64,000 bases of DNA from Burkholderiaceae bacterium. Lineage in GTDB: Bacteria > Pseudomonadota > Gammaproteobacteria > Burkholderiales > Burkholderiaceae_D. Below the pieces are notes generated by a model. The model made no database searches. It saw nothing but the letters and a program-made list of their open reading frames with translations, and had not been told where the DNA came from. The DNA lies in contig JAOASL010000033.1 of assembly GCA_030158675.1 (NCBI GenBank), forward strand, positions 17,160-81,159, written 5' to 3'. Both the position numbers and the translations under genes were made by a program. Positions 4,739-57,136 of this stretch are shown here, piece by piece. Position 1 is the first letter of the stretch. Every line of letters begins with the position of its first letter.

Positions 4739-5451
4739 ATGCATGGAATGGCGTGGCTGCGGTGTACGGCAAGGAAATGCAGACCTATTTCCGTTCGCCG
4801 ATCGCCTATTTCGTAATCGCCGTGTTCTTGCTTGGCACCGGCTATTTTTTCACTTACAACATCTTTCTGACCGGCGTCGGCACGATGGATGTGACCCTGC
4901 AGAACATGGGAATCCTGCTCATCACGCTGTCACCGGTGCTGACGATGCGCCTGTTCTCCGGCGAGTACACCGGCCGCACGATGGAGCTGCTCATGACGCT
5001 GCCGCTACGCACCTGGCAGGTCGTGCTCGGAAAGTACCTCGGCGCCGTCTCGATACTGCTGCTGATGACGGCGGCTTCGGCGATCAACCTGGTGCCGCTG
5101 TACCTGTACGGCTCTCCGCACACAAGCAACATTGTGGCCGGGTATATCGGCTTCCTGCTGCTTGGCATGGCTTGCATCGGCATCGGCCAGCTGTTCTCCG
5201 CGCTGACGGAGAACCAGATCGTCGCCGCCCTGATCACGATCCCGGTGCTGCTGCTGTTCTGGTTCATCGGCCACTTGCAGGGTCTGCAGTCATCGGTGCT
5301 GTTGCGCGACCTGTTCGCCCACCTGTCGTTCTCGGAACACTATGCCGACTTCATCCAGGGGCTGTTGCGTACCGAAGCCATCACCTTCTTCCTGGTCGTG
5401 GTCGCCTGCGCGCTGACGCTAAACACCAGCTGGCTGCAATGGCGGCGCTAA
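4735..5451 (+). CDS. ABC-2 type transporter permease (GldF-like)
   Basis: ORF 4648..5451 trimmed to the ATG at 4735, which is translationally coupled to the ATPase gene. Sequence MNAWNGVAAVYGKEMQTYFRSPIAYFVIAVFLLGTGYFF and multiple TM segments. Confidence 0.88.
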   Translation: MNAWNGVAAVYGKEMQTYFRSPIAYFVIAVFLLGTGYFFTYNIFLTGVGTMDVTLQNMGILLITLSPVLTMRLFSGEYTGRTMELLMTLPLRTWQVVLGKYLGAVSILLLMTAASAINLVPLYLYGSPHTSNIVAGYIGFLLLGMACIGIGQLFSALTENQIVAALITIPVLLLFWFIGHLQGLQSSVLLRDLFAHLSFSEHYADFIQGLLRTEAITFFLVVVACALTLNTSWLQWRR

Positions 5452-5513
5452 GCGCAGCACTGAACACGGCACTGCCGGTATCACAAGAACAACAATGAAA
5501 GCTTCCGAACACC

Positions 5514-7136
5514 ATGGATAGCACTTTTCGCTCTGGCCTGATCCTCATTGCCGGCATCGTCGTGCTGATCGCTTCGGCGATCGCAAGCGCACTGTCGGTC
5601 GATTCGTCCGTCGTTACCAATGCCTTGCTGGTCGCGGGTCTTTTGCTGTCGTTGTGGGCGCTGTTCAAGCTGCGCATCGATATCCGTCTGCTGTTTTCCG
5701 CCAACCGGCGCGAGCTGCTACTGTCGACCGTCGGCGTGCTCGGCGTGCTGGTCGCCATCGCCTGGGTCAGTGCGCTTTATCCGAAGCGATTCGACCTGAC
5801 AGCGACACAGGAATATTCGCTGGCGCCGGAAACGGTCGCAATGCTGAAGACGATTGACCGCCCGGTCCATATCACCTTCTTCCATGACCGCGGCATGCGC
5901 GAGACGGTCGAACTATACGAGCTGTTCGCCGCGCAAAACAGCAAGATCAGCGCCGAATTCTTCGACCCCACGCTGAACCCGGCGCAGGCCAAACTACGTG
6001 GCGTGCAGTTTGCCGGCACTGCGTTGTTCGAAAGCGAAGGGCGCAAGCTCACCGTCAACGGGCCGACCGAAACCGATATCGCGAATGGCTTGCTGCGGGT
6101 CACCCAGGCCAAGCAGCAGCTTGCCTGCTTCGTCGAGGGTCATGGCGAACCCAACCCGTTCAGCCTGGAGTCGCACGATCACACCGAAGGCGCCGCCGGC
6201 CATGCGCACGGCCTGGAGACCAAGGTCGTGCAGCACGAACAGCACGGCATGGCCAAGGCACGCGGCGCGCTTGAGGCACTGAACTATCTGGTCGAAAAAG
6301 TTTCGCTGATGCAGGCAAACACCGATCTGTCGCGTTGCTCGGTGCTGATCGTCGCCGGCCCGCAGATGCAGCTGCTCGAGCCCGAGGTGAAGGCGATCGA
6401 CGCCTATCTCGACAACGGCGGCAAGGCGATGTTCATGATCGATCCGTTCATCAAGACCGGCCTTGATCGCGTGATCGCGAAATTCGGCATCGTGCTGGAA
6501 GATGACATGGTGATCGATCCGGCCAGCCACTTCTGGGCCGACCCGTCGACGCCGGCCGTCAGCGACTACAACCCGCACGAGATCACCTCCAAGCTGCCGC
6601 AGACCTTTTTCCCGGGAGCGCGTTCGCTGATGCCGACGGCAGCGGCGGTACCCGGCGTGTCAGTGCGCCAGCTGGTGAATACTTCGAAGAAAAGCTTCTC
6701 AAATTCAGACCGTACGAAAGTCGAGTTCGTCGAAGGTAAGAACCGCGGCGGCCCGCTGACCATCATGGCCACCTCGCGCATCAATCCGCAGACGGTCGAG
6801 TCGGCCGAAACATTGATGCGCCGCCTGCGCGGAGAGAAGGTCGATGCGGCCAAGCCCATTACCGAGCGCAAGGAAGCGCGTATCGTCGTTGTCGGCGATT
6901 CGGACTTCGCGACCAACTCGTTCTATCACCTGGTCGGTAACGGCACGCTGTTCATGAATGCGGTGAACTTCCTCGCGGCGCGCGACAACCTGATCGGCTT
7001 AAAGCCGCGTACCTATGACCTGCCGCTGGTGGTCATGACCAATACGCAGATGAAAGGCACCTTCGTGCTGTCGATCATCCTGATCCCGCTGCTGATGGCG
7101 GCGCTCGGTATCGCTGTCTGGTGGAGGAGGCGTTAA
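5514..7136 (+). CDS. ABC transporter auxiliary protein, GldG-like (large periplasmic domain between N- and C-terminal TM anchors)
   Basis: 540 aa. N-terminal TM helices, a long soluble middle including VVGDSDFATNSF, and a C-terminal TM (FVLSIILIPLLMAALGIAVWW). It follows the GldA/GldF-like pair, as in GldAFG-type systems. Confidence 0.8.
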   Translation: MDSTFRSGLILIAGIVVLIASAIASALSVDSSVVTNALLVAGLLLSLWALFKLRIDIRLLFSANRRELLLSTVGVLGVLVAIAWVSALYPKRFDLTATQEYSLAPETVAMLKTIDRPVHITFFHDRGMRETVELYELFAAQNSKISAEFFDPTLNPAQAKLRGVQFAGTALFESEGRKLTVNGPTETDIANGLLRVTQAKQQLACFVEGHGEPNPFSLESHDHTEGAAGHAHGLETKVVQHEQHGMAKARGALEALNYLVEKVSLMQANTDLSRCSVLIVAGPQMQLLEPEVKAIDAYLDNGGKAMFMIDPFIKTGLDRVIAKFGIVLEDDMVIDPASHFWADPSTPAVSDYNPHEITSKLPQTFFPGARSLMPTAAAVPGVSVRQLVNTSKKSFSNSDRTKVEFVEGKNRGGPLTIMATSRINPQTVESAETLMRRLRGEKVDAAKPITERKEARIVVVGDSDFATNSFYHLVGNGTLFMNAVNFLAARDNLIGLKPRTYDLPLVVMTNTQMKGTFVLSIILIPLLMAALGIAVWWRRR

Positions 7137-16953: not shown

Positions 16954-18033
16954 ATGACTCTTTCCAGAATTTCGCGCCGCGGCATGGTCGCGGCCCTGCT
17001 GGCCATGGCCGGCGCCTCAGGTGTCGGATTGGTAACGGCAGAAGACACCGAACGCACCTTGCTCGACCGCGCGCTCGGCGTATTCAAACCACTGCCTGAT
17101 ACCGCGCATGTCGATGATTACCCGCACTCCGGTGCGCGTGTCGAGCTCGGCCGCAAGCTGTTCTTCGAGACCCGCGTGTCCACCGACGGCCGCACCAGCT
17201 GTGCCACCTGCCACAACCCGTCGTTCTACGGTACCGATGCGCTGCCGCGGTCCATCGGCGTGTTTGGCAAGAAGCTGCCGCGCAATGCGCACACCGTATT
17301 CAATACGCCGCTGCTGGTCGCGCAGCATTACGGCGGCAACCGGGTCTCCGTCGAAGAGCAGGCGATGAAGGCACTGACCAGTCCTTTTGCCTATGGCAAC
17401 AAAAGCCCCGAGGAAGCGGCTGAGAAACTACGCGCACTCGGATACCAGAAGCTCTTCGACGAGTCCTTCCCGAACGAGAAAGACGCGGTCTCGGCTGAAC
17501 ACTGGGGCGTGGCGATCGGTGCCTACGAGCGCACGCTGCTGACTCCGGCACCCTTCGACCGCTATCTGAAGGGGGATAGGCAGGCCATCAGCGCCGAGGC
17601 CAAGGTCGGCCTGGACAAGTTCATCAGCTACGGCTGCGCCGGCTGCCACAACGGCGCTACGGTCGGCGGCAACATGTTCCAGAAATTCGGCTTGACGGAG
17701 GATTACTGGAAAGCGACCGGCAGTGTCGAGATCCCGGAGCTGAAAGGCCGCGACAAGGGCAAATTCCATGACACCGGCAAAGAAGAAGATCAGTGGATCT
17801 TCAAGGTACCCCAGCTGCGTAATGTCGCGATGACGCCGCCCTATTTCCATGATGGGTCGGTGGCGACGCTCGGTGATGCGGTGCGCGTGATGGCACGGCT
17901 GCAGTTGGGCCGGCAATTGTCTGACGACGACGTGCAACACATCGTTGCCTTCCTCGAAACTCTGACCGGCGACGTGCCGGCCAACTTTGCCCAGGTGCCG
18001 CAGCTGCCGGTGGCAGCCTTCGCGGCGAAGTAA
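16954..18033 (+). CDS. Di-heme cytochrome c peroxidase (CCP/MauG family)
   Basis: GGAGA RBS. Two heme c sites, CATCHN and CAGCHNG, plus PPYFHDGS, the conserved CCP signature. Confidence 0.92.
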   Translation: MTLSRISRRGMVAALLAMAGASGVGLVTAEDTERTLLDRALGVFKPLPDTAHVDDYPHSGARVELGRKLFFETRVSTDGRTSCATCHNPSFYGTDALPRSIGVFGKKLPRNAHTVFNTPLLVAQHYGGNRVSVEEQAMKALTSPFAYGNKSPEEAAEKLRALGYQKLFDESFPNEKDAVSAEHWGVAIGAYERTLLTPAPFDRYLKGDRQAISAEAKVGLDKFISYGCAGCHNGATVGGNMFQKFGLTEDYWKATGSVEIPELKGRDKGKFHDTGKEEDQWIFKVPQLRNVAMTPPYFHDGSVATLGDAVRVMARLQLGRQLSDDDVQHIVAFLETLTGDVPANFAQVPQLPVAAFAAK

Positions 18034-22181: not shown

Positions 22182-22241
22182 GCCACGAGGATAACCGACG
22201 GCGGGTCCGGACGTACAACCGACGCCCGTGGATGCTCAGGT

Positions 22242-22272
22242 AAAAACCAGCCTCCCCAGAAGGGGAGACTGG
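22242..22272 (-). terminator. Rho-independent terminator downstream of the PQQ dehydrogenase gene
   Basis: On the minus strand, CCAGTCTCCCC-TTCT-GGGGAGGCTGG (11-bp stem, one mismatch) followed by TTTTTA. A second perfect palindrome, CTCCGGCCGGCCGGAG, lies at 22311..22326. Confidence 0.75.
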
Positions 22273-22375
22273 AAAACCCAACGCGAGAGAAAAATCGCTG
22301 TATTGCCAGCCTCCGGCCGGCCGGAGAACCGACCGGAGACCTTGGCTGACGAATCAGCCTTGCTGCACTGCCGAG

Positions 22376-24130
22376 TTAGTTCTTCGGCAGCTTGAACACC
22401 ATCAGCGTGCCGCCCTGCGGAACGATGGTATTGGTGCCACGCACGTGGTCGATTGCGGAGGCCAGACGCTGCGCGTCAACGCCCCAGCCCGACTGCACGG
22501 CGATGTACTGCTCACCGTCGACTTCATACGAGCTCGGCACACCGATCACGCCGGAAGGAGTTGCATACTCCCAGAGGATCTTGCCGGTCTTCGCATCCAT
22601 CGCGCGGAACTTACGGTCAGGCAGACCACCCGAGAACACCAGGTTGCCGCCAGTGACGAAGGTCGGCGTCCAGATCTGGTCGCCAAACTTGGTCGACCAG
22701 GCCAGCTTGCCGGTCTTCGGATCCCATGCCTGGATCTCGCCGATCGAGTTCTTCGCACCCGGTCCAAGGCGGACGTTGGTCAGCACGCCTTCGAGCGGGA
22801 AGCCGATGAACAGATCACCCGCCTTATACGTGGTCGTCTCGCCCTTTGGCAGTTCCGAGCACATATTGTCGTTGGCCATCGTGTAGATCAGGCCAGTCTT
22901 CGGGCTGTACGATTCCGGCAGCCAGTCCTTGCCACCCCACAGCGACGGGCAGAAACCTGCGCCCTGCTTCATCGACGGCTTGTGCGTCATGTCGACATCA
23001 GGACGGCCCGTCTTCGGATCCAGCGACTTGAACACGTTGTTGCCAACGTAAGGCCAGCCCTTGACGAATTTCAGCGCGCCGGTGTTGGTGCGCTCGAGCA
23101 CCCACATGTAGCCGTTACGGCCGGCACGGACAGCTGCCGGGGTCTTCTTGCCGTTGATTTCGGTGTCGATCAGCAGCGGCGGGGTCACTTCATCCCAGTC
23201 CCACGAATCGTTCTGAGCGTACTGGTGGTAGCCCTTGATTTCGCCGGTGTCGACATCCAGTGCCATCGTGGAGCTTGCAAACAGGTTGTCGCCCTGACGC
23301 AGGTCAGGCGTCCACGGACCCGGGTTGCCGGTGCCCCAGTAAGCGGTGTTGGTCTTCGGATCGTAAGTACCCGTGACCCAGACTGAGCCGCCGCCGGTCT
23401 TGTACGAACCGTTGTTTGGCCAAGTGTCGCCACCCTGCTCGGTCGGGCCAGGAATGGTGTGACGGCGCCATGACATCTTGCCGGTCTCCGCATCGACAGC
23501 TGCGATGAAGCCGCGGATGCCGTATTCGCCACCCGACACGCCGACCATGATCTTGCCCTTCGCAGCCAGCGGCGCGAGGGTCATGTAGTAGCCGGTCTTC
23601 CAGTTTTCGATCTGCGTGGTCCAGAGGACTTTGCCGGTCTTGGCATCGAGCGCAACCAGGTTGCAGTCGGTGGTCGCGACATAGACTTTGTCGCCGTACA
23701 GTGCCACACCGCGGTTGGTCGGGTGCAGCTGGAACAGCTCAGAGGGGATCTCTTTCTTGTAACGCCAGATTTCCTGACCGGTCTTCGCATTCAGCGCGAG
23801 CACCTGGTTCTGCGGCGTAGTGACGAACATGAAGCCATCGTTGACGATCGGCGGCGACTGGTGACCTTCGGTCACGCCGGTCGAGTAGGACCATGCCAGT
23901 TGCAGCTTGTTGACGTTCTTGTCGGTGACTTTGTCCAGCGCGCTGTAACCCCAGCTGCCGTAGTTACCGCGCCAGCTGAGCCAGTTGCGTGCTTCCGGGC
24001 TCTGCAGACGCGAATCGGTCACCGGCTTATAGGCCGGAACGCCTTTGCCCGCTGCCGGGCCTTCTGCCATCACCGACGCTGCTGGCAGCAGCGCGAGCGC
24101 GAATGCGAGGTGCTTCATGCGAAATGTCAT
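22376..24130 (-). CDS. PQQ-dependent dehydrogenase, methanol/ethanol family (atypical: no vicinal Cys-Cys)
   Basis: GGAGGA sits 8 nt before the ATG at 24130. Signal peptide MTFRMKHLAFALALLPAASVMA. Propeller W-motifs, GVSGGEYGIRGF (metal-binding Glu), GDNLFASS (Asn) and NDSWDWDE (catalytic Asp region). Confidence 0.9.
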   Translation of the reverse strand: MTFRMKHLAFALALLPAASVMAEGPAAGKGVPAYKPVTDSRLQSPEARNWLSWRGNYGSWGYSALDKVTDKNVNKLQLAWSYSTGVTEGHQSPPIVNDGFMFVTTPQNQVLALNAKTGQEIWRYKKEIPSELFQLHPTNRGVALYGDKVYVATTDCNLVALDAKTGKVLWTTQIENWKTGYYMTLAPLAAKGKIMVGVSGGEYGIRGFIAAVDAETGKMSWRRHTIPGPTEQGGDTWPNNGSYKTGGGSVWVTGTYDPKTNTAYWGTGNPGPWTPDLRQGDNLFASSTMALDVDTGEIKGYHQYAQNDSWDWDEVTPPLLIDTEINGKKTPAAVRAGRNGYMWVLERTNTGALKFVKGWPYVGNNVFKSLDPKTGRPDVDMTHKPSMKQGAGFCPSLWGGKDWLPESYSPKTGLIYTMANDNMCSELPKGETTTYKAGDLFIGFPLEGVLTNVRLGPGAKNSIGEIQAWDPKTGKLAWSTKFGDQIWTPTFVTGGNLVFSGGLPDRKFRAMDAKTGKILWEYATPSGVIGVPSSYEVDGEQYIAVQSGWGVDAQRLASAIDHVRGTNTIVPQGGTLMVFKLPKN

Positions 24131-24222
24131 TCTGATTCTCCTCCATCGTTGAATTTGGCTACTTTCGTAGCTCCCCTTTTCGCGAACGGGATCACCACCC
24201 GCGAATTCTGCTCCGGTCGTCG

Positions 24223-24795
24223 TCAGACGCCCGGCTTGTTCGAAAAGCCGCCGGCAATGGTCAGCAGCCCGTCTTTTTCAGTCAGCGGCACATAGGCCAA
24301 TGACTTCGCCGCCGGCCCCTTGGCCACGGTGCCGTCAGCCGGATTGAATTTCGAGAAATGGCAGAAGCACATCAGCACTTTTTCAGCGCTGACGAATTCG
24401 GTCACATCGCAGCCCTGATGGGTGCAGACGGCGGAATAGGCAACCACGCCATTGACGGCACGCGCCTTAGTTTCGTCGGTCATCGCGGCCGGATCGAGGC
24501 GCACCAGCATCAGCTTGTTCAGACGCGAACCATCTTTCGGCTTCTTCTCTTTCAGGTCGTACGGGAACACCAGCACAGGCTTGGCGCCGACCTTGATGTC
24601 GTCAGCCTTCAGCGGTGCGGTCGCTTCGCCTTTGGCCGGCACCAGCAGATCGCCCTTGGCCGGGCCTTCGACGTTGTCATCGGCTTGCGCGGAACCGATC
24701 GGCATGGCGCAGCAGCCGGCCGCAGCACCGGTGGCCTTCAGCAGCAGGCGGCGCTGTACGTCGACGGAATTCATTTCTTTCACTTCGTAGTTCAT
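24223..24795 (-). CDS. Tat-exported Rieske [2Fe-2S] protein
   Basis: AGAGG RBS. Twin-arginine signal (VQRRLLLKATGAAAG). Rieske ligands are CTHQGC ... CFCH, i.e. C-x-H followed by C-x-x-H, separated by 16 residues (DVTEFVSAEKVLM precedes the CFCH box). Confidence 0.88.
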   Translation of the reverse strand: MNYEVKEMNSVDVQRRLLLKATGAAAGCCAMPIGSAQADDNVEGPAKGDLLVPAKGEATAPLKADDIKVGAKPVLVFPYDLKEKKPKDGSRLNKLMLVRLDPAAMTDETKARAVNGVVAYSAVCTHQGCDVTEFVSAEKVLMCFCHFSKFNPADGTVAKGPAAKSLAYVPLTEKDGLLTIAGGFSNKPGV

Positions 24796-24808
24796 TTCAA
24801 CCTCTTGA

Positions 24809-24839
24809 GCTTTTAAATCTGCTTTTAAATCTTTAAATC
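24809..24839. repeat. Tandem direct repeat GCTTTTAAATCT x2 plus a partial third copy
   Basis: Exact 12-mers at 24809..24820 and 24821..24832, then TTAAATC at 24833..24839, which overlaps the gntR stop. It fills the gap between gntR and the Rieske gene RBS. Confidence 0.9.
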
Positions 24840-25534
24840 AAAACATGCTTCTTTTCGTCCGACGCATGGTCCGCCTGGACCTCGCTATCGGTGTTGCTGA
24901 TGACCGTTACAGCCGAAAAATTAATATGATGCCGCGCGAGCCGTTCCGCTTCAGCCGCATTGCCATCGATCACCGCCTGAATGATGGCTTCATGCTGCGT
25001 CCAGATCTCGACCGGCGCCCGCCCGATCATCAGTACTGCACCCATCGCGCAGCGCAAGTAGCTCCAGTGCGATGACGCTGTCTCAGCAATCATCGGATTG
25101 CCGGACAGCTCGTACAAAAAATGGTGAAAAGCCATGTCGGCAGAGACGAGGTCGGAGATCGAATTCTTCTTCACGGCCTGCCATCCGCGTTCGATATAGT
25201 CGGGGCCTTCGGCGGCTGCACGCACGCTTGAGCGTTCGGCCGCCCGACCGCAGGCCAGCGCGTCCAGGCTGGCGCGGATCTCATACAGATTGCGCACTTT
25301 GTCCTGATCGAATGGCGCGACCATCAGGCCGCGACCCGGCGCGCTGGTCAGCACGCCTTCGTTGCGAAGTAACAAGAGTGCCTGTTGAACCGGTTGCCTC
25401 GACACACCAAGCGACTCGGCGATCTCTTCCTGGATCAGCCGCGCGTCGACACCAAAGGTACCTGCCTCGATCCGCGAAAGAATCGCCTCGTACACCTGGT
25501 CGACCAGAGTCAATTGTGGCCGCGATATTTGCAT
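24833..25534 (-). CDS. GntR family transcriptional regulator (FCD-type C-terminal domain)
   Basis: GGGAGA RBS. wHTH region EEIAESLGVSRQPVQQALLLLRNEGVL followed by a helical FCD-like domain. Confidence 0.92.
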   Translation of the reverse strand: MQISRPQLTLVDQVYEAILSRIEAGTFGVDARLIQEEIAESLGVSRQPVQQALLLLRNEGVLTSAPGRGLMVAPFDQDKVRNLYEIRASLDALACGRAAERSSVRAAAEGPDYIERGWQAVKKNSISDLVSADMAFHHFLYELSGNPMIAETASSHWSYLRCAMGAVLMIGRAPVEIWTQHEAIIQAVIDGNAAEAERLARHHINFSAVTVISNTDSEVQADHASDEKKHVLI

Positions 25535-25867
25535 CGTCTCCCTAGCGGCGAGCCTGAAGGCCCGTCATACCTCGTTATTTTTGAATTCTGAATTCTGAAT
25601 TCGAATTTTCATTTTGAACGAGAGTAGTGATCACCGCACATTGTGTCAATGCAAGCCGTTTCGAATCTTCGAAAGTCCCCCTTGTAAATTTGCAAATCTA
25701 TCCGCTCTCTAGCAGCTTTCTTCAGGAAATGAAGACCAAATTGCCACCGAAAGCGCCCGTGCCACCCACCGATGGCGTCCCAAGGCTCCCGAACTTTTGA
25801 TCTCGGTCATATAGATTTTTGAAAGAATTCCATAAAGTAATACCGTTTAGTCCGATAACGGAGACCC

Positions 25868-27298
25868 ATGCCTTGCCTCGTGCCGCTACGGATGCGCCTG
25901 TTCGCGCTGACTTTCACCGGCAGTGTCGTCGCGGCATTGCTTTCGACCGCTGCTGCGCTTGCCGGTACGATGCAATCGCCGATAGAGCTCAACGCAGCCT
26001 ACCTGCAGCCGATCGAAGACCTGTCTGCCGATGAGGCGCGCCAGTTCCGGGCCGGCGAGACCATGTTTCGCACCCTATGGCTGACCTTCCCGGCGATGCC
26101 GGTGCAAAACAACTGGCAATACATGCGACCGCGTGGCGGTTATGCATGGGGACTCGGACCGACCTTTATCGCCAATTCGTGCATGGCCTGTCATGTGCAG
26201 GCCGGTCGCGGCAAAACGACCGACCGATCCAACAGCACCGTATTCCAGCAATTGCTGCGTGTGTCCCTGCCCGGCGAGAACCCGCACGGCGGACCACGGT
26301 CTCATCCTCACTATGGCGGGCAGTTGCAGGTTTTTGATGTGATTTCCGCTGATCGCCAGCAAGTACGGCAGGGCGAAGCGGATGTGTTTGTCGACTGGCA
26401 GCCCGAACCGGTATCCCTGCCCGATGGCACACAGGTCGAGCTGCGCCGCCCGAAGATCCGGGTCGAGAGCCTGTCGTATGGGCCGCTGGGCGATCAGGTG
26501 ATGACCTCATTGCGGAATGCACCGCCCATCTTCGGACTGGGCTATTTGGAGTCGGTCAGCGAAGACGACATCCTTCACATCGCCGCCGCACAACAGGCAA
26601 TCGGCCTGAACGGGCGCATGAACTATGTGCGCGACGATGTGCGGGATAAAAGTTCGCTCGGTCGCTTTGGCTGGAAGGCGAATCAGCCTAGCGTGCGCCA
26701 GCAGGTAGCGGCTGCATTTCTGCATGACATGGGTATTACTTCATCGCTCTATCCAAAACAAAACTGTCCGCCGGTTCAGATCTACTGCAAGGCGGCACCA
26801 CCCGGCGATTCGGTCGAATTGTTTGCGGATGAATTTGACGATCTCACCTTTTGGGCGCTCGCGCTGGAGGCGCCGCCGCGTCGAGAGCGCGACCGTGCGG
26901 ATATTCAGACGGGAGAAAAGTTATTCGGGCAGGCCGGTTGCGCCCAATGCCATTTGCCGCAGATGAAAACTGCCGCCAACGCGCCCTTTCCCGCGCTGGC
27001 CGGCCGCGTATTTCATCCCTACACCGATCTGCTGGTGCATGACATGGGCGACGGCCTTGCCGACGGCCGCCCCGACTACAAGGCGGGGCCACGCGACTGG
27101 CGCACTGCTCCGTTGTGGGGCATCGGATTGTCAAAGCAGGTCAATGGCAGCACCCATCTGATGCATGACGGACGGGCACGCAATGTGACTGAGGCCGTCC
27201 TGTGGCACGGCGGTGAGGCACAGCCGGCACGCGACGCATTCGCGCGTTTCAGTCAGGAAGACCGTGATGCCCTGGTCGCCTTCGTGAATTCGCTCTGA
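25868..27298 (+). CDS. DUF1111-type di-heme oxidoreductase (putative peroxidase / thiol oxidoreductase family)
   Basis: GGAGA RBS and a signal peptide. Two heme c sites, CMACH and CAQCH. The C-terminal block WRTAPLWGIGL...HDGRARNVTEAVLWHGGEA is shared with the paralog at 63027..64000. Confidence 0.85.
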   Translation: MPCLVPLRMRLFALTFTGSVVAALLSTAAALAGTMQSPIELNAAYLQPIEDLSADEARQFRAGETMFRTLWLTFPAMPVQNNWQYMRPRGGYAWGLGPTFIANSCMACHVQAGRGKTTDRSNSTVFQQLLRVSLPGENPHGGPRSHPHYGGQLQVFDVISADRQQVRQGEADVFVDWQPEPVSLPDGTQVELRRPKIRVESLSYGPLGDQVMTSLRNAPPIFGLGYLESVSEDDILHIAAAQQAIGLNGRMNYVRDDVRDKSSLGRFGWKANQPSVRQQVAAAFLHDMGITSSLYPKQNCPPVQIYCKAAPPGDSVELFADEFDDLTFWALALEAPPRRERDRADIQTGEKLFGQAGCAQCHLPQMKTAANAPFPALAGRVFHPYTDLLVHDMGDGLADGRPDYKAGPRDWRTAPLWGIGLSKQVNGSTHLMHDGRARNVTEAVLWHGGEAQPARDAFARFSQEDRDALVAFVNSL

Positions 27299-52688: not shown

Positions 52689-53708
52689 TCAGGCCAGCCC
52701 GATCCGCAGCCACTGCCCGCGCTTGTCCTGCATTGCCACGCCGACGCCCCAGTGACTGGCGGCAGCCGCAACCCGCTCTTTCGGCAGCATGAAAAACACC
52801 TTGGTCAGACCGTCGGCCAGCGCGGCACTGCGCGCGACGACGGTCACCGATGACCAGTATTGCGGTGAATCGCCAGAGCGCGGATCGAGGATATGGTGAT
52901 GCACGCGGTCGGCGGTGAAGGTGGTGTGCGCGTCCGACGAGGTCGCAGCTGCATACGCATCCGGCACCATAATGGCCGGCGTGGCTGAGCCGGTGCCGCT
53001 GACAACAGCGCCGTTGGCATGGACGTCTTCAATTCCGAAACGCCACGGCGTGCGGTCGGGCGCGAGGCCGAGCACGGCGGTCTCGCCGGTATCGAGCATC
53101 GCGTCGCGTATGCCCAGCGTCCGCAGTTCGCCGCGCACTGCGTCGGCGGCGTAGCCCTGCGCAATGCCGTTCAGCGACAGCGAAAATCCCCTGGGCAGCA
53201 ATACGCGTTCACGGCTTGCATCGAGCGCGCGCCAGTTCACCTGCGCGGTCGCACGGCTGAGCTCGCGCGCCGACGGCAGTCGCGCGTCGCGCCGTGCGCC
53301 ATCCCACAGTTCCCACAACGGCTGCATCGTCACGTCGAATGCGCCACCGCTGTCGGCGGCGATCCGGGTTGACAGTTGCAGCACCTGGAGCAGCCCGGCA
53401 TCGGGCCGGTCGAGCCGGCCGCTGCGGTTCAGGCGGCGCAATGCGCTGTTGTCGTCAAACAGGCTCATCTGTGCTTCGATCATGCGAATGCGCTTCACTG
53501 CACGGTCGAGCGCATGCTCGACCCGGCCGGCATCGGCGTGCGCGGCGCGCAGCCACAGCGTGGTACCGAAACCCTGCAGTACGCGCTCGCGCCAGGCAAG
53601 CGCGTCAGCTGACTCGCGTGTCTGGCCGGCAGCGGCCAGTTTCGGGAAGGCGCTGACAGCAGCCAGCCCCATGCCGAAACCGAGAAATTGACGTCGGGTA
53701 GTATTCAT
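52689..53708 (-). CDS. apbE: FAD:protein FMN transferase (ApbE family), Tat-exported
   Basis: ORF trimmed to the ATG at 53708, which overlaps the upstream stop (ATGA). Tat signal MNTTRRQFLGFGMGLAAVSAFPKLAAA followed by an ApbE fold. Confidence 0.88.
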   Translation of the reverse strand: MNTTRRQFLGFGMGLAAVSAFPKLAAAGQTRESADALAWRERVLQGFGTTLWLRAAHADAGRVEHALDRAVKRIRMIEAQMSLFDDNSALRRLNRSGRLDRPDAGLLQVLQLSTRIAADSGGAFDVTMQPLWELWDGARRDARLPSARELSRATAQVNWRALDASRERVLLPRGFSLSLNGIAQGYAADAVRGELRTLGIRDAMLDTGETAVLGLAPDRTPWRFGIEDVHANGAVVSGTGSATPAIMVPDAYAAATSSDAHTTFTADRVHHHILDPRSGDSPQYWSSVTVVARSAALADGLTKVFFMLPKERVAAAASHWGVGVAMQDKRGQWLRIGLA

Positions 53709-55816
53709 GCGGCCTCCTTGTGCGGCACGATCGCAATCATCGTGCGCTTTTTTTCCTGTATCAACGGCAGACATTGCTTGTCGTCCTGCCAGATCGCGAC
53801 GCAATCGAGGCACTGGAAGCATTCCTGGTACGCCACCTTGCCTTCCTTCGAAATCGACTGGTAGTCGCAACGGCTGCGGCAGGTCTGGCATGGCTTGCCG
53901 CAGGCATCACGACGCGCGATCCAGCCCCAGCGCTGCAGTGGGTTCAGCACAGCCAGCGCAGCACCGAGCGGACAGATGTAGCGGCAATAGCCGCGATAGA
54001 CGAAAACACTCAGCGCAAGACAGGCCAGCGCCCAGGCCACGTACGGCCAGTCGCGCACGAAATACAGGCTGATCGCTGTCTTGAACGGTTCGATTTCAAC
54101 AAGAATTTCAGTCGCTGACGGTGCAGCCCAGAGCGATGCGACGATCGCCGCCAGCACGCCGTACTTGATCCACTTCAGCCGACGGTCCCATTCGTGGCGG
54201 ATGCGCCGGTGGCGCACGCCGACAACCCGCATCGTCTTGCTGACCAGTTCCTGCAATGCGCCGAACGGGCACAACCAGCCGCAGAAGGTGCCGCGCCCCC
54301 AGACCAGCAGCGTGACAAATACGGCCAGCCACAAAATCACCGTCATCGGATCAGTCAGCAAAAAGCGCAGGTCATTGCCCATCGCCAGCGATTCAATCGA
54401 CGAGGTGATGTTGACGATCGACAGCTGTCCCTGAAACAGCCAGCCAATGCCACTCACGGTAAACAGCAAAAAAGGCACGCGGACACGGCGCAGACGCCGC
54501 GCACTGGTCGTCACGCTGTGCTGGCGCAGCAGCACCGTGCTCAGCACGGCCAGCGCACAGAACAGCAAGCCGATCTCCCACCAGCGCTTCTGCCAGACCT
54601 CGAACCAGTCCGAATCACGCCACGATGCCAGGGTCGCGCGCCAGCCATGGAAGCGATACGGCAGCGGGAAAGCGGCGGTGGCCACCATGGTCGGGAACGG
54701 ACCGTAGCGGCGCTGCAGCCTGACCGTCAGATCGAAGGCGCGTGTGACGTCGAAAGGCGTGTCGGCGTCGATGATGAAAATGCGGTTGCGCGCACGGCTG
54801 TCGGTGGGCAGTTTGACGGTTTCGTCATAGCCCAGCTGGCGCAGCGGCAGCGGCTTGCCGTCCTGCTCCAGCGTGAAGCTCAGCGAACCGCCGCGCGGGC
54901 CGCGCAGCAGGTCCGACAGCGGCCCGCTTTCACTGACCAGGAGGGCTTCGCCGCCGCGCAGGTTGGCTTCGACGACGCGCCAGCCTTTGTCGTCCAGTAG
55001 GTTGCGCCCGATCTGCGGCAGGCTGACCAGCGCAACGTGAAACTCGATCGCCAACTCGTCCGGATGCGATGCCGCGTCGGCATCGGCCCCGGCCGCACGC
55101 GTGCCCTTGAACGCCGCCTCGATCTGCGCGCGCGCCAGTCGCGTGGTCTCGACCATGCGACGCGATTGCAGTTGCGCCCAGTCCAGCGAACGGATATCGA
55201 CATCGCTGGCGCGCCGAGTCATGCGTTTACCTTCGGACGCCCCATTACTCTCGAGCGCTTCGGGCGCCAGCGTCAGCACGGTATTTACTGACTGCAGCAT
55301 GGTCTTGTCGATCGCGCGCGCGGTCACCGTGCCGGCCTGCACGCCATGCAGTATGGCCTGCTGGCTGTCACGACTGACCGCCGCCTGCGGGCCCTTGATG
55401 TCGATATGGTGGCGCACCGACAGGCCTTTGTACTGCGCGGCGAAGTCGGCGATCTTGCGCGTGCCGGATTCGGCACGGAACAGCGGCTCGCGATGCTCGA
55501 GCAATCGCACCTCAAGATAATTGCCTTCGGTGTCGGTGAGCACGAACAAATTGATCGGCTTGCCGCTGTAGCCGCGCACCGGTTCGATGTCGACCGATTC
55601 GAATGCATAGCCGCTCAGCTGCGGCTTCTGGCCAGGAATGGCCGGGTCGCGCTGATACAGCGGCCAGACCGGCAGCATCGACAGCATGTCGCCGACGATG
55701 TAGCGCGCACCCAGCTCCTGTTCGACATCGATCTTGCGCAAGGTGGTCGCGCCGACGGCGCTGGCCAGCAGCGCAAGCAGGCAGCTCAGCAGCGCCCGCA
55801 ACAACAGATTCTTCAC
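53705..55816 (-). CDS. NosR/NirI-family membrane redox protein (periplasmic FMN-binding-type domain, polytopic core, C-terminal Cys clusters)
   Basis: Probable GTG start at 55816; the maximal ORF extends to 55936. Signal/anchor KNLLLRALLSCLLALLASAVGA. Two CxxxCP motifs (CGWLCP, CRYICP) and ferredoxin-like clusters CGKPCQTCRSRC and CFQCLDC. Confidence 0.82.
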   Translation of the reverse strand: MKNLLLRALLSCLLALLASAVGATTLRKIDVEQELGARYIVGDMLSMLPVWPLYQRDPAIPGQKPQLSGYAFESVDIEPVRGYSGKPINLFVLTDTEGNYLEVRLLEHREPLFRAESGTRKIADFAAQYKGLSVRHHIDIKGPQAAVSRDSQQAILHGVQAGTVTARAIDKTMLQSVNTVLTLAPEALESNGASEGKRMTRRASDVDIRSLDWAQLQSRRMVETTRLARAQIEAAFKGTRAAGADADAASHPDELAIEFHVALVSLPQIGRNLLDDKGWRVVEANLRGGEALLVSESGPLSDLLRGPRGGSLSFTLEQDGKPLPLRQLGYDETVKLPTDSRARNRIFIIDADTPFDVTRAFDLTVRLQRRYGPFPTMVATAAFPLPYRFHGWRATLASWRDSDWFEVWQKRWWEIGLLFCALAVLSTVLLRQHSVTTSARRLRRVRVPFLLFTVSGIGWLFQGQLSIVNITSSIESLAMGNDLRFLLTDPMTVILWLAVFVTLLVWGRGTFCGWLCPFGALQELVSKTMRVVGVRHRRIRHEWDRRLKWIKYGVLAAIVASLWAAPSATEILVEIEPFKTAISLYFVRDWPYVAWALACLALSVFVYRGYCRYICPLGAALAVLNPLQRWGWIARRDACGKPCQTCRSRCDYQSISKEGKVAYQECFQCLDCVAIWQDDKQCLPLIQEKKRTMIAIVPHKEAA

Positions 55817-55936
55817 GTGTCCCCAGCCGCATTGCTCATGATTTGCGGGCAATGTACACCAGCGTGGCGCCGGCGCCCTTTGAATTCCTTTAAGCGCGCT
55901 TTGTGGCGAGAAAGGGGCGCGGGGACTCGCGCGCAA

Positions 55937-56947
55937 TCAGGCCGGCATCATCAATGCCTGTGCGGAGATATCGAGCGAGCGCAGGCGCAGCGCCGGGTCA
56001 TACACATCGGACACCAGGATGAATTCGTCAGCACGGGTCAGTTCTGCCAGTTGCCCGAAGCCGTCGCGCACCGTGTCCGGACCGCCGATCACGGCCGCGG
56101 CGAGAAAATCGGCGATCGCTTCCTGTGCCGGCAGGTCCAGGCTGTCCATAAATCCGGGCACAGGCGGCTGCAGCGGGCGGCGGTCGCCGGTCAGGATGCC
56201 GAGCACGCGCTGATAGGTGCTGCTGGCAAGATACTCGGCCTCGTCATCGCTCGGCGCTGCAATCACTTGCATGCCGATCGCGACATAGGGCTCGCTGAGG
56301 GTGTCAGAGGGCCTGAATTCATTGCGGTACAGCGCGATGGCCTGCATCAGCAAGCGCGGCGCAAAGTGCGATGCGAACGCATACGGCAGCCCGCGCGCCG
56401 CCGCCAGCCGCGCGGAGAACAGGCTGGAGCCGAGCAGCCAGATCGGCACATTCGTTCCCGCGCCCGGCATCGCGATCACACGCTGGCCCGGCTGCGCCGG
56501 CCCGAGCAGGTGCTGCAATTCGGCGACGTCTTGCGGAAAGTCGTCTTCGCTTTCAACACGATCGCGCCTCAGCGCACGCATGGTCAGTCCGTCCGTGCCC
56601 GGTGCGCGGCCAAGGCCGAGGTCGATACGGCCCGGATACAGCTCGGCGAGGGTACCGAAAGCTTCGGCGACCACCAGCGGCGCATGATTGGGCAGCATCA
56701 CCCCCCCCGAGCCCACCCGGATGCGCGATGTGCCGCCGGCGATATGACCGACCAGCACCGCCGTGGCCGAGCACGCCAGGCCGGCCATATTGTGATGTTC
56801 TGCCAGCCAGTAGCGGGTAAAGCCCAGCGACTCGGCATGCTGCGCGGTACGCAGCGCAATCGCCAGTGCGTCGGCGACGGTGCCGCCTTCACGCACGGCC
56901 ACCAGGTCAAGCATCGAAAGACGGGGAGACATCGGGGATGAGGACAT
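55937..56947 (-). CDS. LLM-class (luciferase-like) flavin-dependent oxidoreductase
   Basis: ORF trimmed to the ATG at 56947; 56932 is also possible. LSMLDLVAV...[12 protein letters not shown]...[36 protein letters not shown] is typical of the YhbW-like LLM subgroup. Confidence 0.88.
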
Positions 56948-57136
56948 GTTCAGCCAATGAAAAGGTCGCCGGAACCTCCGGCAAGGGCGAAGTATAAGCC
57001 CGCCATTGATTCGGCTCCGGACAGGACGGACACACATCCGCCGTGCTTCGACGCAGCAATCTCGGGCAATTATCAAAACAATAAATCTGGCGCTCGATCT
57101 GAAAACCGAGCATCGGTGCGGTCTTTGGTTGCAGGC

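Follow-up and report, generated by a model that had tools for sequence, protein, structure and literature searches.

Which protein takes up the electrons of a pyrroloquinoline quinone (PQQ) dehydrogenase that is encoded next to a Rieske iron-sulfur protein instead of a cytochrome c? This question is raised by a short gene unit in a 64-kb stretch of DNA from a Burkholderiaceae bacterium (contig JAOASL010000033.1), the whole of which is called the window here. The unit encodes a GntR/FCD regulator, a Rieske [2Fe-2S] protein and a PQQ dehydrogenase of the methanol/ethanol family (Table 1). Other soluble quinoprotein alcohol and methanol dehydrogenases use cytochrome cL, XoxG or c550 as acceptor, and to our knowledge every characterised eight-bladed enzyme of this type passes its electrons to a haem c, be it separate, fused or bound. 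The initial annotation of the locus proposed a route from PQQH2 to the Rieske protein, and the comparison with related loci presented here supports this interpretation by gene adjacency. With a probability of about two in three, we regard the Rieske protein as a dedicated acceptor that is the first to take up the electrons of the neighbouring dehydrogenase.

Conservation of the gene pair in relatives had been set beforehand as a test of this proposal. The loci of relatives with which the unit was compared (numbered with the prefix L) form two sets, extended by annotated plasmid records. The Rieske-anchored set contains 80 loci, one genome per species, scanned with a family alignment of 21 Rieske homologues, and the PQQ-anchored set contains 80 loci from a metagenome scan with the dehydrogenase, 67 of which have enough upstream sequence to be usable. 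A PQQ dehydrogenase homologue, 54–95% identical to the one in the window, is located immediately downstream on the same strand in 77 of the 80 Rieske-anchored loci, and one of the three loci without it is a contig end. Conversely, the Rieske gene is located immediately upstream of the dehydrogenase gene in 62/67 PQQ-anchored loci. In 134 Rieske/PQQ pairs the approximate intergenic gaps range from -3 to 178 nt, with 62 nt as the median, and the pairwise-identity matrices of the two proteins are correlated (r = 0.84, Mantel p = 0.001). The two genes are therefore passed on together.

The pairing spans Beta-, Gamma- and Alphaproteobacteria as well as Deinococcota and occurs in two gene orders. 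It was found in many Burkholderiales, in Rhodocyclales (Aromatoleum, Azoarcus, Denitromonas), in Neptuniibacter and Dokdonella, and in metagenome-assembled genomes (MAGs) of Hyphomicrobiales and Acetobacteraceae. Azoarcus sp. KH32C provides an annotated record with the full cluster; the public annotation of the Rieske gene is simply 'Rieske 2Fe-2S domain-containing protein'. On plasmids of Paracoccus and Alteromonas the order is reversed, with the PQQ gene first, followed by the Rieske gene and a gene for a small secreted cysteine-rich protein. On a Deinococcus aetherius plasmid the Rieske gene precedes that of a XoxF-like dehydrogenase, and the substrate-binding protein encoded after the latter may be XoxJ-like. 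Since the adjacency is kept where the gene order, the dehydrogenase clade or even the phylum differs, a functional partnership is strongly indicated.

According to the initial annotation the unit contains no cytochrome c gene, and indeed none was found there. Clustering of the neighbouring genes revealed that the haem-binding motif CxxCH is absent from the dehydrogenase itself and from all neighbour families shared by at least five loci, and an iterative profile search detected cytochrome-c-like open reading frames (ORFs) in just 12 of 160 loci, where they are of mixed kinds. Neither approach detected a conserved cytochrome c. It might still be that the electrons of the dehydrogenase go to an ordinary c-type cytochrome whose gene is located elsewhere and that the Rieske gene is co-located for another enzyme or for cofactor handling. 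The gene for an electron carrier may lie at some distance, as in Aromatoleum petrolei, where a cytochrome c gene paired with an SBP_bac_3 gene lies about 8 kb from the unit; moreover, five members of the PQQ clade are without an adjacent Rieske gene, and the same Rieske family adjoins other proteins in L041, L043 and Thermus plasmids. However, an adjacency in about 93–96% of the loci, observed in four bacterial classes and two gene orders, together with the short gaps and the correlated divergence of both proteins, would be difficult to explain in this way, and the pair is not accompanied by any other conserved gene whose product might use the Rieske protein instead. We regard a cytochrome encoded elsewhere as an improbable explanation.

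The pair might also feed a periplasmic haem peroxidase via the Rieske protein, and not respiration. Two di-haem c-type proteins flank the unit in the window: a DHOR is encoded divergently beside gntR, and a CCP/MauG-like gene is located about 4 kb away. L001, L002, L006 and L090 likewise have a DHOR gene next to gntR, and part of a DHOR gene occurs in L065. However, DHOR genes occur in 6 of 160 loci, only in the closest relatives, and CCP-like ORFs in 2 of 160. These proteins cannot explain a family-wide pairing, and neither is a typical small electron carrier. A peroxidase as the destination is even harder to defend.

The dedicated-acceptor reading requires a closer look at the Rieske protein. 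A twin-arginine signal and a full set of Rieske ligands had been noted before, and both are present: no member of the 21-sequence alignment deviates from the twin arginines R15-R16 (in VQRRLLLKA near the N-terminus) or from the boxes CTHQGC and CFCH. Many homologues of 190–210 aa exist. In a library of 1.84 billion representatives the family amounts to 170 clusters (50% identity) at E <= 1e-30. Among the 149 best-ranking representatives nearly all keep both cluster boxes, and 122 have RR within the first 60 residues, a motif criterion that suggests export by twin-arginine translocation (Tat). The arginines are followed by a weakly hydrophobic stretch that ends in A-x-A (SAQA/DD in the window; ARA/A and AWA/A in distant members), and for this reason, judged by eye, a soluble, cleaved periplasmic protein is expected.

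With E 2e-39 the family profile matches the Rieske protein of Thermus thermophilus (1NYK/3FOU) along the entire soluble domain; the next matches are QcrA of actinobacteria and AioB of arsenite oxidase. The AlphaFold2 model has a mean predicted local distance difference test score (pLDDT) of 83.7, with more than 90 in the mature domain, and can be superimposed on 1NYK with a template modelling (TM) score of 0.90 and a root-mean-square deviation of 1.6 Å at 38% identity. Both cysteines forming the stabilising disulfide of bc-type Rieske proteins are included in the boxes. Box II (CFCHFSKF) retains the Ser that forms a hydrogen bond to the cluster in bc1 proteins and has Phe in place of the Tyr. 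The protein probably has a moderately high potential, which would be suited to accept electrons from PQQH2.

The initial annotation had also considered that the Rieske protein might belong to a different known complex. Its nearest relatives are indeed Rieske proteins of bc complexes; however, the conserved neighbour families include no recognisable gene for cytochrome b, c1, AioA or another known Rieske partner. In a stricter form, the protein would be an alternative cytochrome bc1 subunit, a PetA paralogue whose linkage to the dehydrogenase is fortuitous, and one homologue is indeed named 'ubiquinol-cytochrome c reductase iron-sulfur subunit' in RefSeq. However, the Rieske-subunit models all stay far below their cutoffs (29 versus 97 bits for the proteobacterial model TIGR01416; NF050121 and NF010001 as well), and the weakly hydrophobic stretch with A-x-A suggests a cleaved, soluble protein, which together make a bc1 subunit very unlikely. 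The AioB model TIGR02694 reaches 38.9 bits with a cutoff of 95.65, and no molybdopterin gene adjoins the Rieske gene of the window.

Members of the Rieske family are also encoded without a PQQ gene. In L043 (4903..8140) the homologue is located between a 153-aa cytochrome c and a 514-aa tri-haem cytochrome c, showing that the family can keep company with cytochromes. The homologue in L041 (2925..6579) follows a 329-aa WD40-like propeller and has a rhodanese/metallo-beta-lactamase protein encoded upstream, which suggests a sulfur-related context. Plasmids of Thermus thermophilus carry a second Rieske gene (L170, 5980..6573) beside genes for a GH15 glycoside hydrolase and a TauE-family exporter; its product is 35% identical to that of the window, and it adjoins neither a PQQ enzyme nor a bc complex.

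The dehydrogenase reaches 557.4 bits with the methanol/ethanol family model TIGR03075 (cutoff 480.05). Its best solved relatives are 6ZCV/6ZCW ('Quinoprotein ethanol dehydrogenase', E 1e-102), which we take to be the lanthanide enzyme PedH of Pseudomonas putida. The metal ligands, the catalytic Asp and the PQQ-stacking Trp (Glu202, Asn269, Asp311 and Trp251) are invariant in 77–78 clade sequences and align to the respective positions of 6ZCV/6ZCW and XoxF. Asp313 is invariant in 77 clade members, and Arg338 is conserved. The motif WDWDEV, with an Asp two residues past the catalytic Asp, is found in 77/77 Rieske-anchored dehydrogenases. This is the lanthanide position, which reads DwD in the window, DfD in 6ZCV/6ZCW and DyD in XoxF, and which is occupied by Thr in the quinohaemoproteins 1KV9 and 1YIQ, which are Ca2+ enzymes. 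Judged by these residues, the enzyme is quite probably lanthanide-dependent. As DWD was included in the pattern used to search the metagenomes, it is not independent evidence for that set; the cysteine-less site described next is independent.

A vicinal Cys-Cys pair, located above the PQQ, is present in every cytochrome-c-linked relative compared: PedH (6ZCV/6ZCW, rpCCdvinrg), 1KV9 (tsCCdavnrg), 1YIQ (aCCdavnrg) and XoxF (6DAM, mCCdtvnrg). The dehydrogenase of the window has lfqlhptnrg at this site. The consensus in all 77 Rieske-anchored dehydrogenases is L-H-P/N-T-N/S-R-G, and no Cys occurs there in the 77 genomic and 80 metagenomic clade members. The vicinal disulfide has been implicated in electron exit to cytochrome c, and its role has long been debated. 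The enzyme has the family profile and the catalytic features and lacks two usual traits, namely the Cys-Cys pair and an encoded or fused cytochrome c partner; it looks catalytically intact and altered at the acceptor side. The Paracoccus/Alteromonas sister clade is cysteine-less too, but has Ala at the lanthanide position (WDWA, calcium type). That the propeller binds no PQQ and the Rieske cluster is the sole redox centre is hardly credible, since the second-best family match, TIGR04528 ('acido-empty-quinoprotein group A', 382 bits), is far under its cutoff of 650 bits, TIGR03075 is above its own, and the metal ligands, the catalytic Asp and the stacking Trp are all invariant.

If the Rieske protein is the dedicated acceptor, the following route can be proposed. 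As the dehydrogenase has its own Sec-type signal, the two proteins would be exported separately, the dehydrogenase via Sec and the Rieske protein, pre-folded, via Tat. The periplasmic dehydrogenase, probably lanthanide-loaded, would oxidise an alcohol, and the [2Fe-2S] cluster would re-oxidise PQQH2 in two one-electron steps. The reduced Rieske protein would then pass the electrons to the respiratory chain. The simplest candidate carrier is a general housekeeping c-type cytochrome, in analogy with arsenite oxidase.

An alternative carrier, limited to certain lineages, might be a NosR-like flavo-iron-sulfur membrane protein. A protein of this kind, with FMN-binding and 4Fe-4S domains, is encoded directly after the PQQ gene in four loci (L038, L045, L067 and L074), and in Neptuniibacter loci its gene is divergent from the pair. 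The window encodes a homologue as well (Table 1). Its assignment to a nos cluster was rejected: it is located together with genes for ApbE and a luciferase-like monooxygenase, and NosZ is not encoded there. The NosR-like protein as downstream acceptor is speculative, but it is a lead. A further-reaching idea, which we regard as doubtful, is a 'quinoprotein plus Rieske' class of its own, in which a [2Fe-2S] cluster and not haem c would take the electrons from PQQH2. The two proteins would maybe form a stable periplasmic complex, with NosR-like wiring in some lineages that would connect lanthanide-dependent diol oxidation in the periplasm to the quinone pool without any haem.

The genes surrounding the pair give indications of the substrate. 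In the 80 genomic loci the most frequent neighbours are an AldA-type aldehyde dehydrogenase (NF007497, 755 bits; 37 loci), an acyl-CoA ligase (33), a GntR regulator (30), a thiamine enzyme matching the 2-hydroxyacyl-CoA lyase model NF058623 (788 bits, cutoff 600; 21), a sigma-54 activator (14) and an alpha/beta hydrolase with a weak epoxide-hydrolase N-terminus (5). Transporters of the AEC, MFS and TRAP types, acyl-CoA dehydrogenases and short-chain dehydrogenases/reductases recur as well. In Actinomycetospora (PMC7176365), 2-methylpropane-1,2-diol is converted to 2-hydroxyisobutyrate and then to its CoA ester, which is cleaved by the lyase; the diol step is assigned there to a cytoplasmic GMC-family oxidoreductase. 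Based on this pathway and on the lyase, ligase and aldehyde dehydrogenase neighbours, we tentatively assign the PQQ/Rieske pair a role in the periplasmic dehydrogenation of 1,2-diols or 2-hydroxy-alcohols. The product would be a 2-hydroxy-aldehyde, which would be converted via the 2-hydroxy-acid to the 2-hydroxyacyl-CoA and finally to formyl-CoA and a carbonyl compound.

Since some operons lack AldA and carry a carboxylate-type transporter, the pair may also act on the aldehyde. In Alteromonas an alpha-hydroxy-acid oxidase is encoded near the pair, and in Aquabacterium a molybdenum aldehyde oxidoreductase after it. The Aromatoleum-type sub-clade has an outer-membrane channel and MimR-like activators nearby, and sub-clades such as this one may take other alcohols. 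An isethionate/sulfoacetaldehyde pathway had first been suspected from the thiamine pyrophosphate enzyme, the AMP-ligase and the TRAP transporter; it was rejected because the thiamine enzyme scores 788 bits on the lyase model and 180–197 bits, below the cutoffs, on the Xsc models.

The compact unit of the window is a reduced form of a longer operon, of which the pair is what remains, as a comparison of close relatives indicates. L003, L004, L005, L007 and L009, with dehydrogenases 80–87% identical to that of the window, contain this longer operon, complete or in part, in the order GntR, MFS, CoA ligase, 2-hydroxyacyl-CoA lyase, Rieske, PQQ and acyl-CoA dehydrogenase. The window, L001, L002 and L090 have gntR directly against the Rieske gene. 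The route to this arrangement is visible in L006, where a deletion scar is retained between gntR and the Rieske gene (5376..5962): residues 20–109 of the MFS protein abut residues 403–572 of the lyase.

Several observations weigh against the interpretation presented here. The five of 67 PQQ-anchored loci mentioned above have no Rieske gene or motif in the fetched flanks. The screen for cytochrome c was crude, as jackhmmer was seeded with four proteins and combined with CxxCH, and it could miss divergent small cytochromes. Two di-haem proteins, which the initial annotation does not mention, flank the unit in the window. The Deinococcus dehydrogenase keeps Cys-Cys despite an adjacent Rieske gene, so that disulfide loss and pairing do not strictly go together; along with the Paracoccus/Alteromonas enzymes it shows that the Rieske pairing is broader than either cysteine loss or the lanthanide Asp. 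Concerning the substrate, genes for the aldehyde dehydrogenase, the ligase and the lyase are encoded nowhere in the window, and the substrate inference is borrowed from the relatives with 80–87% identical dehydrogenases.

The regulator fits into this picture. With an N-terminal winged helix (PF00392, residues 11–72) and a C-terminal FCD domain (PF07729, residues 83–205) it belongs to the FCD subfamily of the GntR family; no specific equivalog model reaches its cutoff, and there is a weak, sub-cutoff resemblance to the LldR and GlcC models. FCD-type regulators include lactate and glycolate sensors. A GntR homologue is encoded near the pair in 30/77 genomic loci. An organic-acid effector had been guessed for the regulator, and this agrees with the 2-hydroxy-acid-type neighbours as well as with the weak LldR and GlcC matches; the regulator would probably sense an acid intermediate.

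The layout of the unit is as described in the initial annotation: three co-directional ORFs on the minus strand were found at exactly the same positions, separated by gaps of 37 bp and 92 bp, and the profile searches it had recommended gave matches to PF01011 and PF00355 in the respective proteins. Upstream of gntR, a promoter-like site and a run of GAATTCA units are likely a promoter plus operator. The two closest relatives, L001 and L002, share the promoter-like layout (TTGACA ... TAATCT) and have GAATTC-type repeats at the equivalent place. The site was not called by a consensus scanner because its -10 hexamer is weak. The tandem 12-mer in the gap between gntR and the Rieske gene was not found in L001 or L002 at this place, and L090 has a merely loosely similar AT-rich stretch there (GAAGATTTAAAGC).

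Downstream of the PQQ gene the RNA fold contains three hairpins (z = -5.4), the last of which is the hairpin with a T-run that had been described as closing the unit; RNA fold and terminator scan agree on it. This hairpin is the sole long-stemmed terminator-like site on the minus strand, with two shorter matches nested inside, and the scan of this strand detected no terminator-like site between the gntR, Rieske and PQQ genes. The pair is probably part of a single autoregulated transcript that would start at the putative promoter upstream of gntR.

Table 1. Features of the unit, of other parts of the window and of the plasmid loci with a different arrangement
Feature	Position	Strand	Remarks
Di-haem CCP/MauG- or MbnH-like protein	16954..18033	+	about 4 kb from the unit, beyond a 1334-aa AsmA-family gene
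Terminator-like hairpin with T-run	22242..22272	-	11-bp stem (22272..22247); closes the unit; terminator scan, RNA fold
G+C-rich 15-bp hairpin	22308..22341	-	3' untranslated region; RNA fold of 22225..22378
PQQ dehydrogenase, methanol/ethanol family, Sec signal	22376..24130	-	584 aa; PF01011 E 1.1e-75; TIGR03075
Rieske [2Fe-2S] protein, Tat signal; putative periplasmic electron acceptor	24223..24795	-	190 aa; PF00355 E 3.6e-10
Tandem 12-mer AGATTTAAAAGC x2	24809..24832	-	occupies most of the 37-bp gap; read from the sequence
GntR/FCD transcription regulator	24833..25534	-	233 aa; PF00392 E 1.2e-13, PF07729 E 4.6e-22
Candidate operator: GAAAATTC, then three tandem GAATTCA units	25582..25610	-	between promoter-like site and gntR; putative function
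Promoter-like TTGACA, 17-nt spacer, TACTCT	25621..25649	-	upstream of gntR; read from the sequence, putative assignment
Di-haem DHOR (PF06537)	25868..27298	+	divergent from the unit, next to gntR
ApbE flavin transferase	52689..53891	-	30 kb from the unit
NosR-like 4Fe-4S membrane protein	53705..55936	-	41–43% identical to the NosR-like genes of L038, L045, L067, L074
Luciferase-like monooxygenase	55937..57076	-	next to the NosR-like gene
PQQ, Rieske, 136–153-aa secreted protein (Paracoccus/Alteromonas plasmids)	L171 1672..4587; L172 2931..5936; L173 2976..5905		secreted protein with conserved cysteines, no known domain
Rieske, XoxF-like PQQ dehydrogenase, transporter substrate-binding protein (Deinococcus aetherius plasmid)	L175 4977..8241		WDYDG, Cys-Cys kept

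Some of the neighbour families could be assigned and others not. Families c62, c64, c68 and c75 were annotated by Pfam at relaxed thresholds, whereas c33, c35, c36, c40 and c56 gave nothing significant under these settings. Family c40 is an outer-membrane barrel by eye and annotation (labelled Phenol_MetA_deg in Aromatoleum). Family c33, without a Pfam match, consists of small secreted proteins with HExxH (174 aa and FHECAHAQ in L065, 8338..8862); in ten loci, L065 among them, its gene immediately follows the PQQ gene. Several MAG records labelled 'uncultured Bifidobacterium sp.' (L001–L004, L065, L070 and L079) contain Burkholderiales-like DNA syntenic with the window, and these labels look wrong.

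The Rieske/PQQ pairing was not described in the full-text literature searched, including recent surveys of lanthanide PQQ enzymes; subscription journals are thinly covered in it, and absence is not proof. Should the proposal be true, an iron-sulfur acceptor would be added to the partners of PQQ dehydrogenases, and this in a large and widespread clade. The clade is a natural set of enzymes without Cys-Cys and thus a test case for the role of the disulfide, and the predicted lanthanide enzymes would extend beyond methylotrophy. The neighbours point to the periplasmic entry step of a diol or epoxide degradation via 2-hydroxyacyl-CoA lyase, an enzyme of current interest for one-carbon bioconversion. 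Cultured carriers of the pair are Azoarcus sp. KH32C, Aromatoleum petrolei, Neptuniibacter, Paracoccus yeei, Methylobacterium aquaticum 22A and Noviherbaspirillum suwonense.

Among the known systems, the dehydrogenase resembles the PedH/ExaF type (6ZCV, 6ZCW) in being a Sec-exported eight-bladed propeller of the TIGR03075 family with the same metal and PQQ ligands and the lanthanide Asp, and in both cases an aldehyde dehydrogenase is often encoded nearby. In contrast, the clade of the window is without the vicinal Cys-Cys pair, the gene for a Tat-exported Rieske protein is found in place of an adjacent cytochrome c550 gene (PedF/ExaB-type), and the neighbours differ, including a 2-hydroxyacyl-CoA lyase and a CoA ligase. 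With XoxF/XoxG/XoxJ and MxaFI/MxaG the unit shares the location of a periplasmic PQQ dehydrogenase gene beside the gene for its own small one-electron carrier. The proposed carrier here is a [2Fe-2S] Rieske protein exported via Tat, not a haem c protein exported via Sec, and the substrates are likely multicarbon compounds. Given the gene order Rieske, XoxF-like dehydrogenase and substrate-binding protein, the Rieske protein of Deinococcus occupies the place expected for an XoxG-type carrier.

Arsenite oxidase (AioAB) likewise combines a periplasmic oxidoreductase with a bc-type Rieske protein carrying a Tat signal. Electrons leave this enzyme through its Rieske subunit, to cytochrome c or azurin, and the large subunit is carried out together with the Rieske subunit by Tat. 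AioB is among the structural neighbours of our Rieske model, as is the solved complex of arsenite oxidase with its native acceptor cytochrome c552 (8ED4). The catalytic partner in the window is a PQQ propeller with its own Sec signal, whereas in AioAB it is a molybdopterin/[3Fe-4S] subunit. The Thermus thermophilus Rieske protein (1NYK, 3FOU) shares the whole soluble domain, both boxes and the disulfide cysteines; however, it is part of a membrane bc complex and has CPCHGG in box II, whereas the protein of the window has CFCHFS, is not encoded beside a cytochrome b and probably carries a signal that can be cleaved off.

The actinobacterial 2-methylpropane-1,2-diol/2-hydroxyisobutyrate pathway (PMC7176365) uses a 2-HIBA-CoA ligase and a thiamine-dependent 2-hydroxyacyl-CoA lyase. 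This lyase family is also encoded by relatives of the window, beside an acyl-CoA ligase and an aldehyde dehydrogenase, but in the actinobacterium a GMC oxidoreductase is at the position taken here by the periplasmic PQQ/Rieske pair, and the window has lost the ligase and the lyase. The single parts of the unit, a quinoprotein of the methanol/ethanol family, a bc-type Rieske protein and an FCD regulator, are familiar, and their combination is apparently new.

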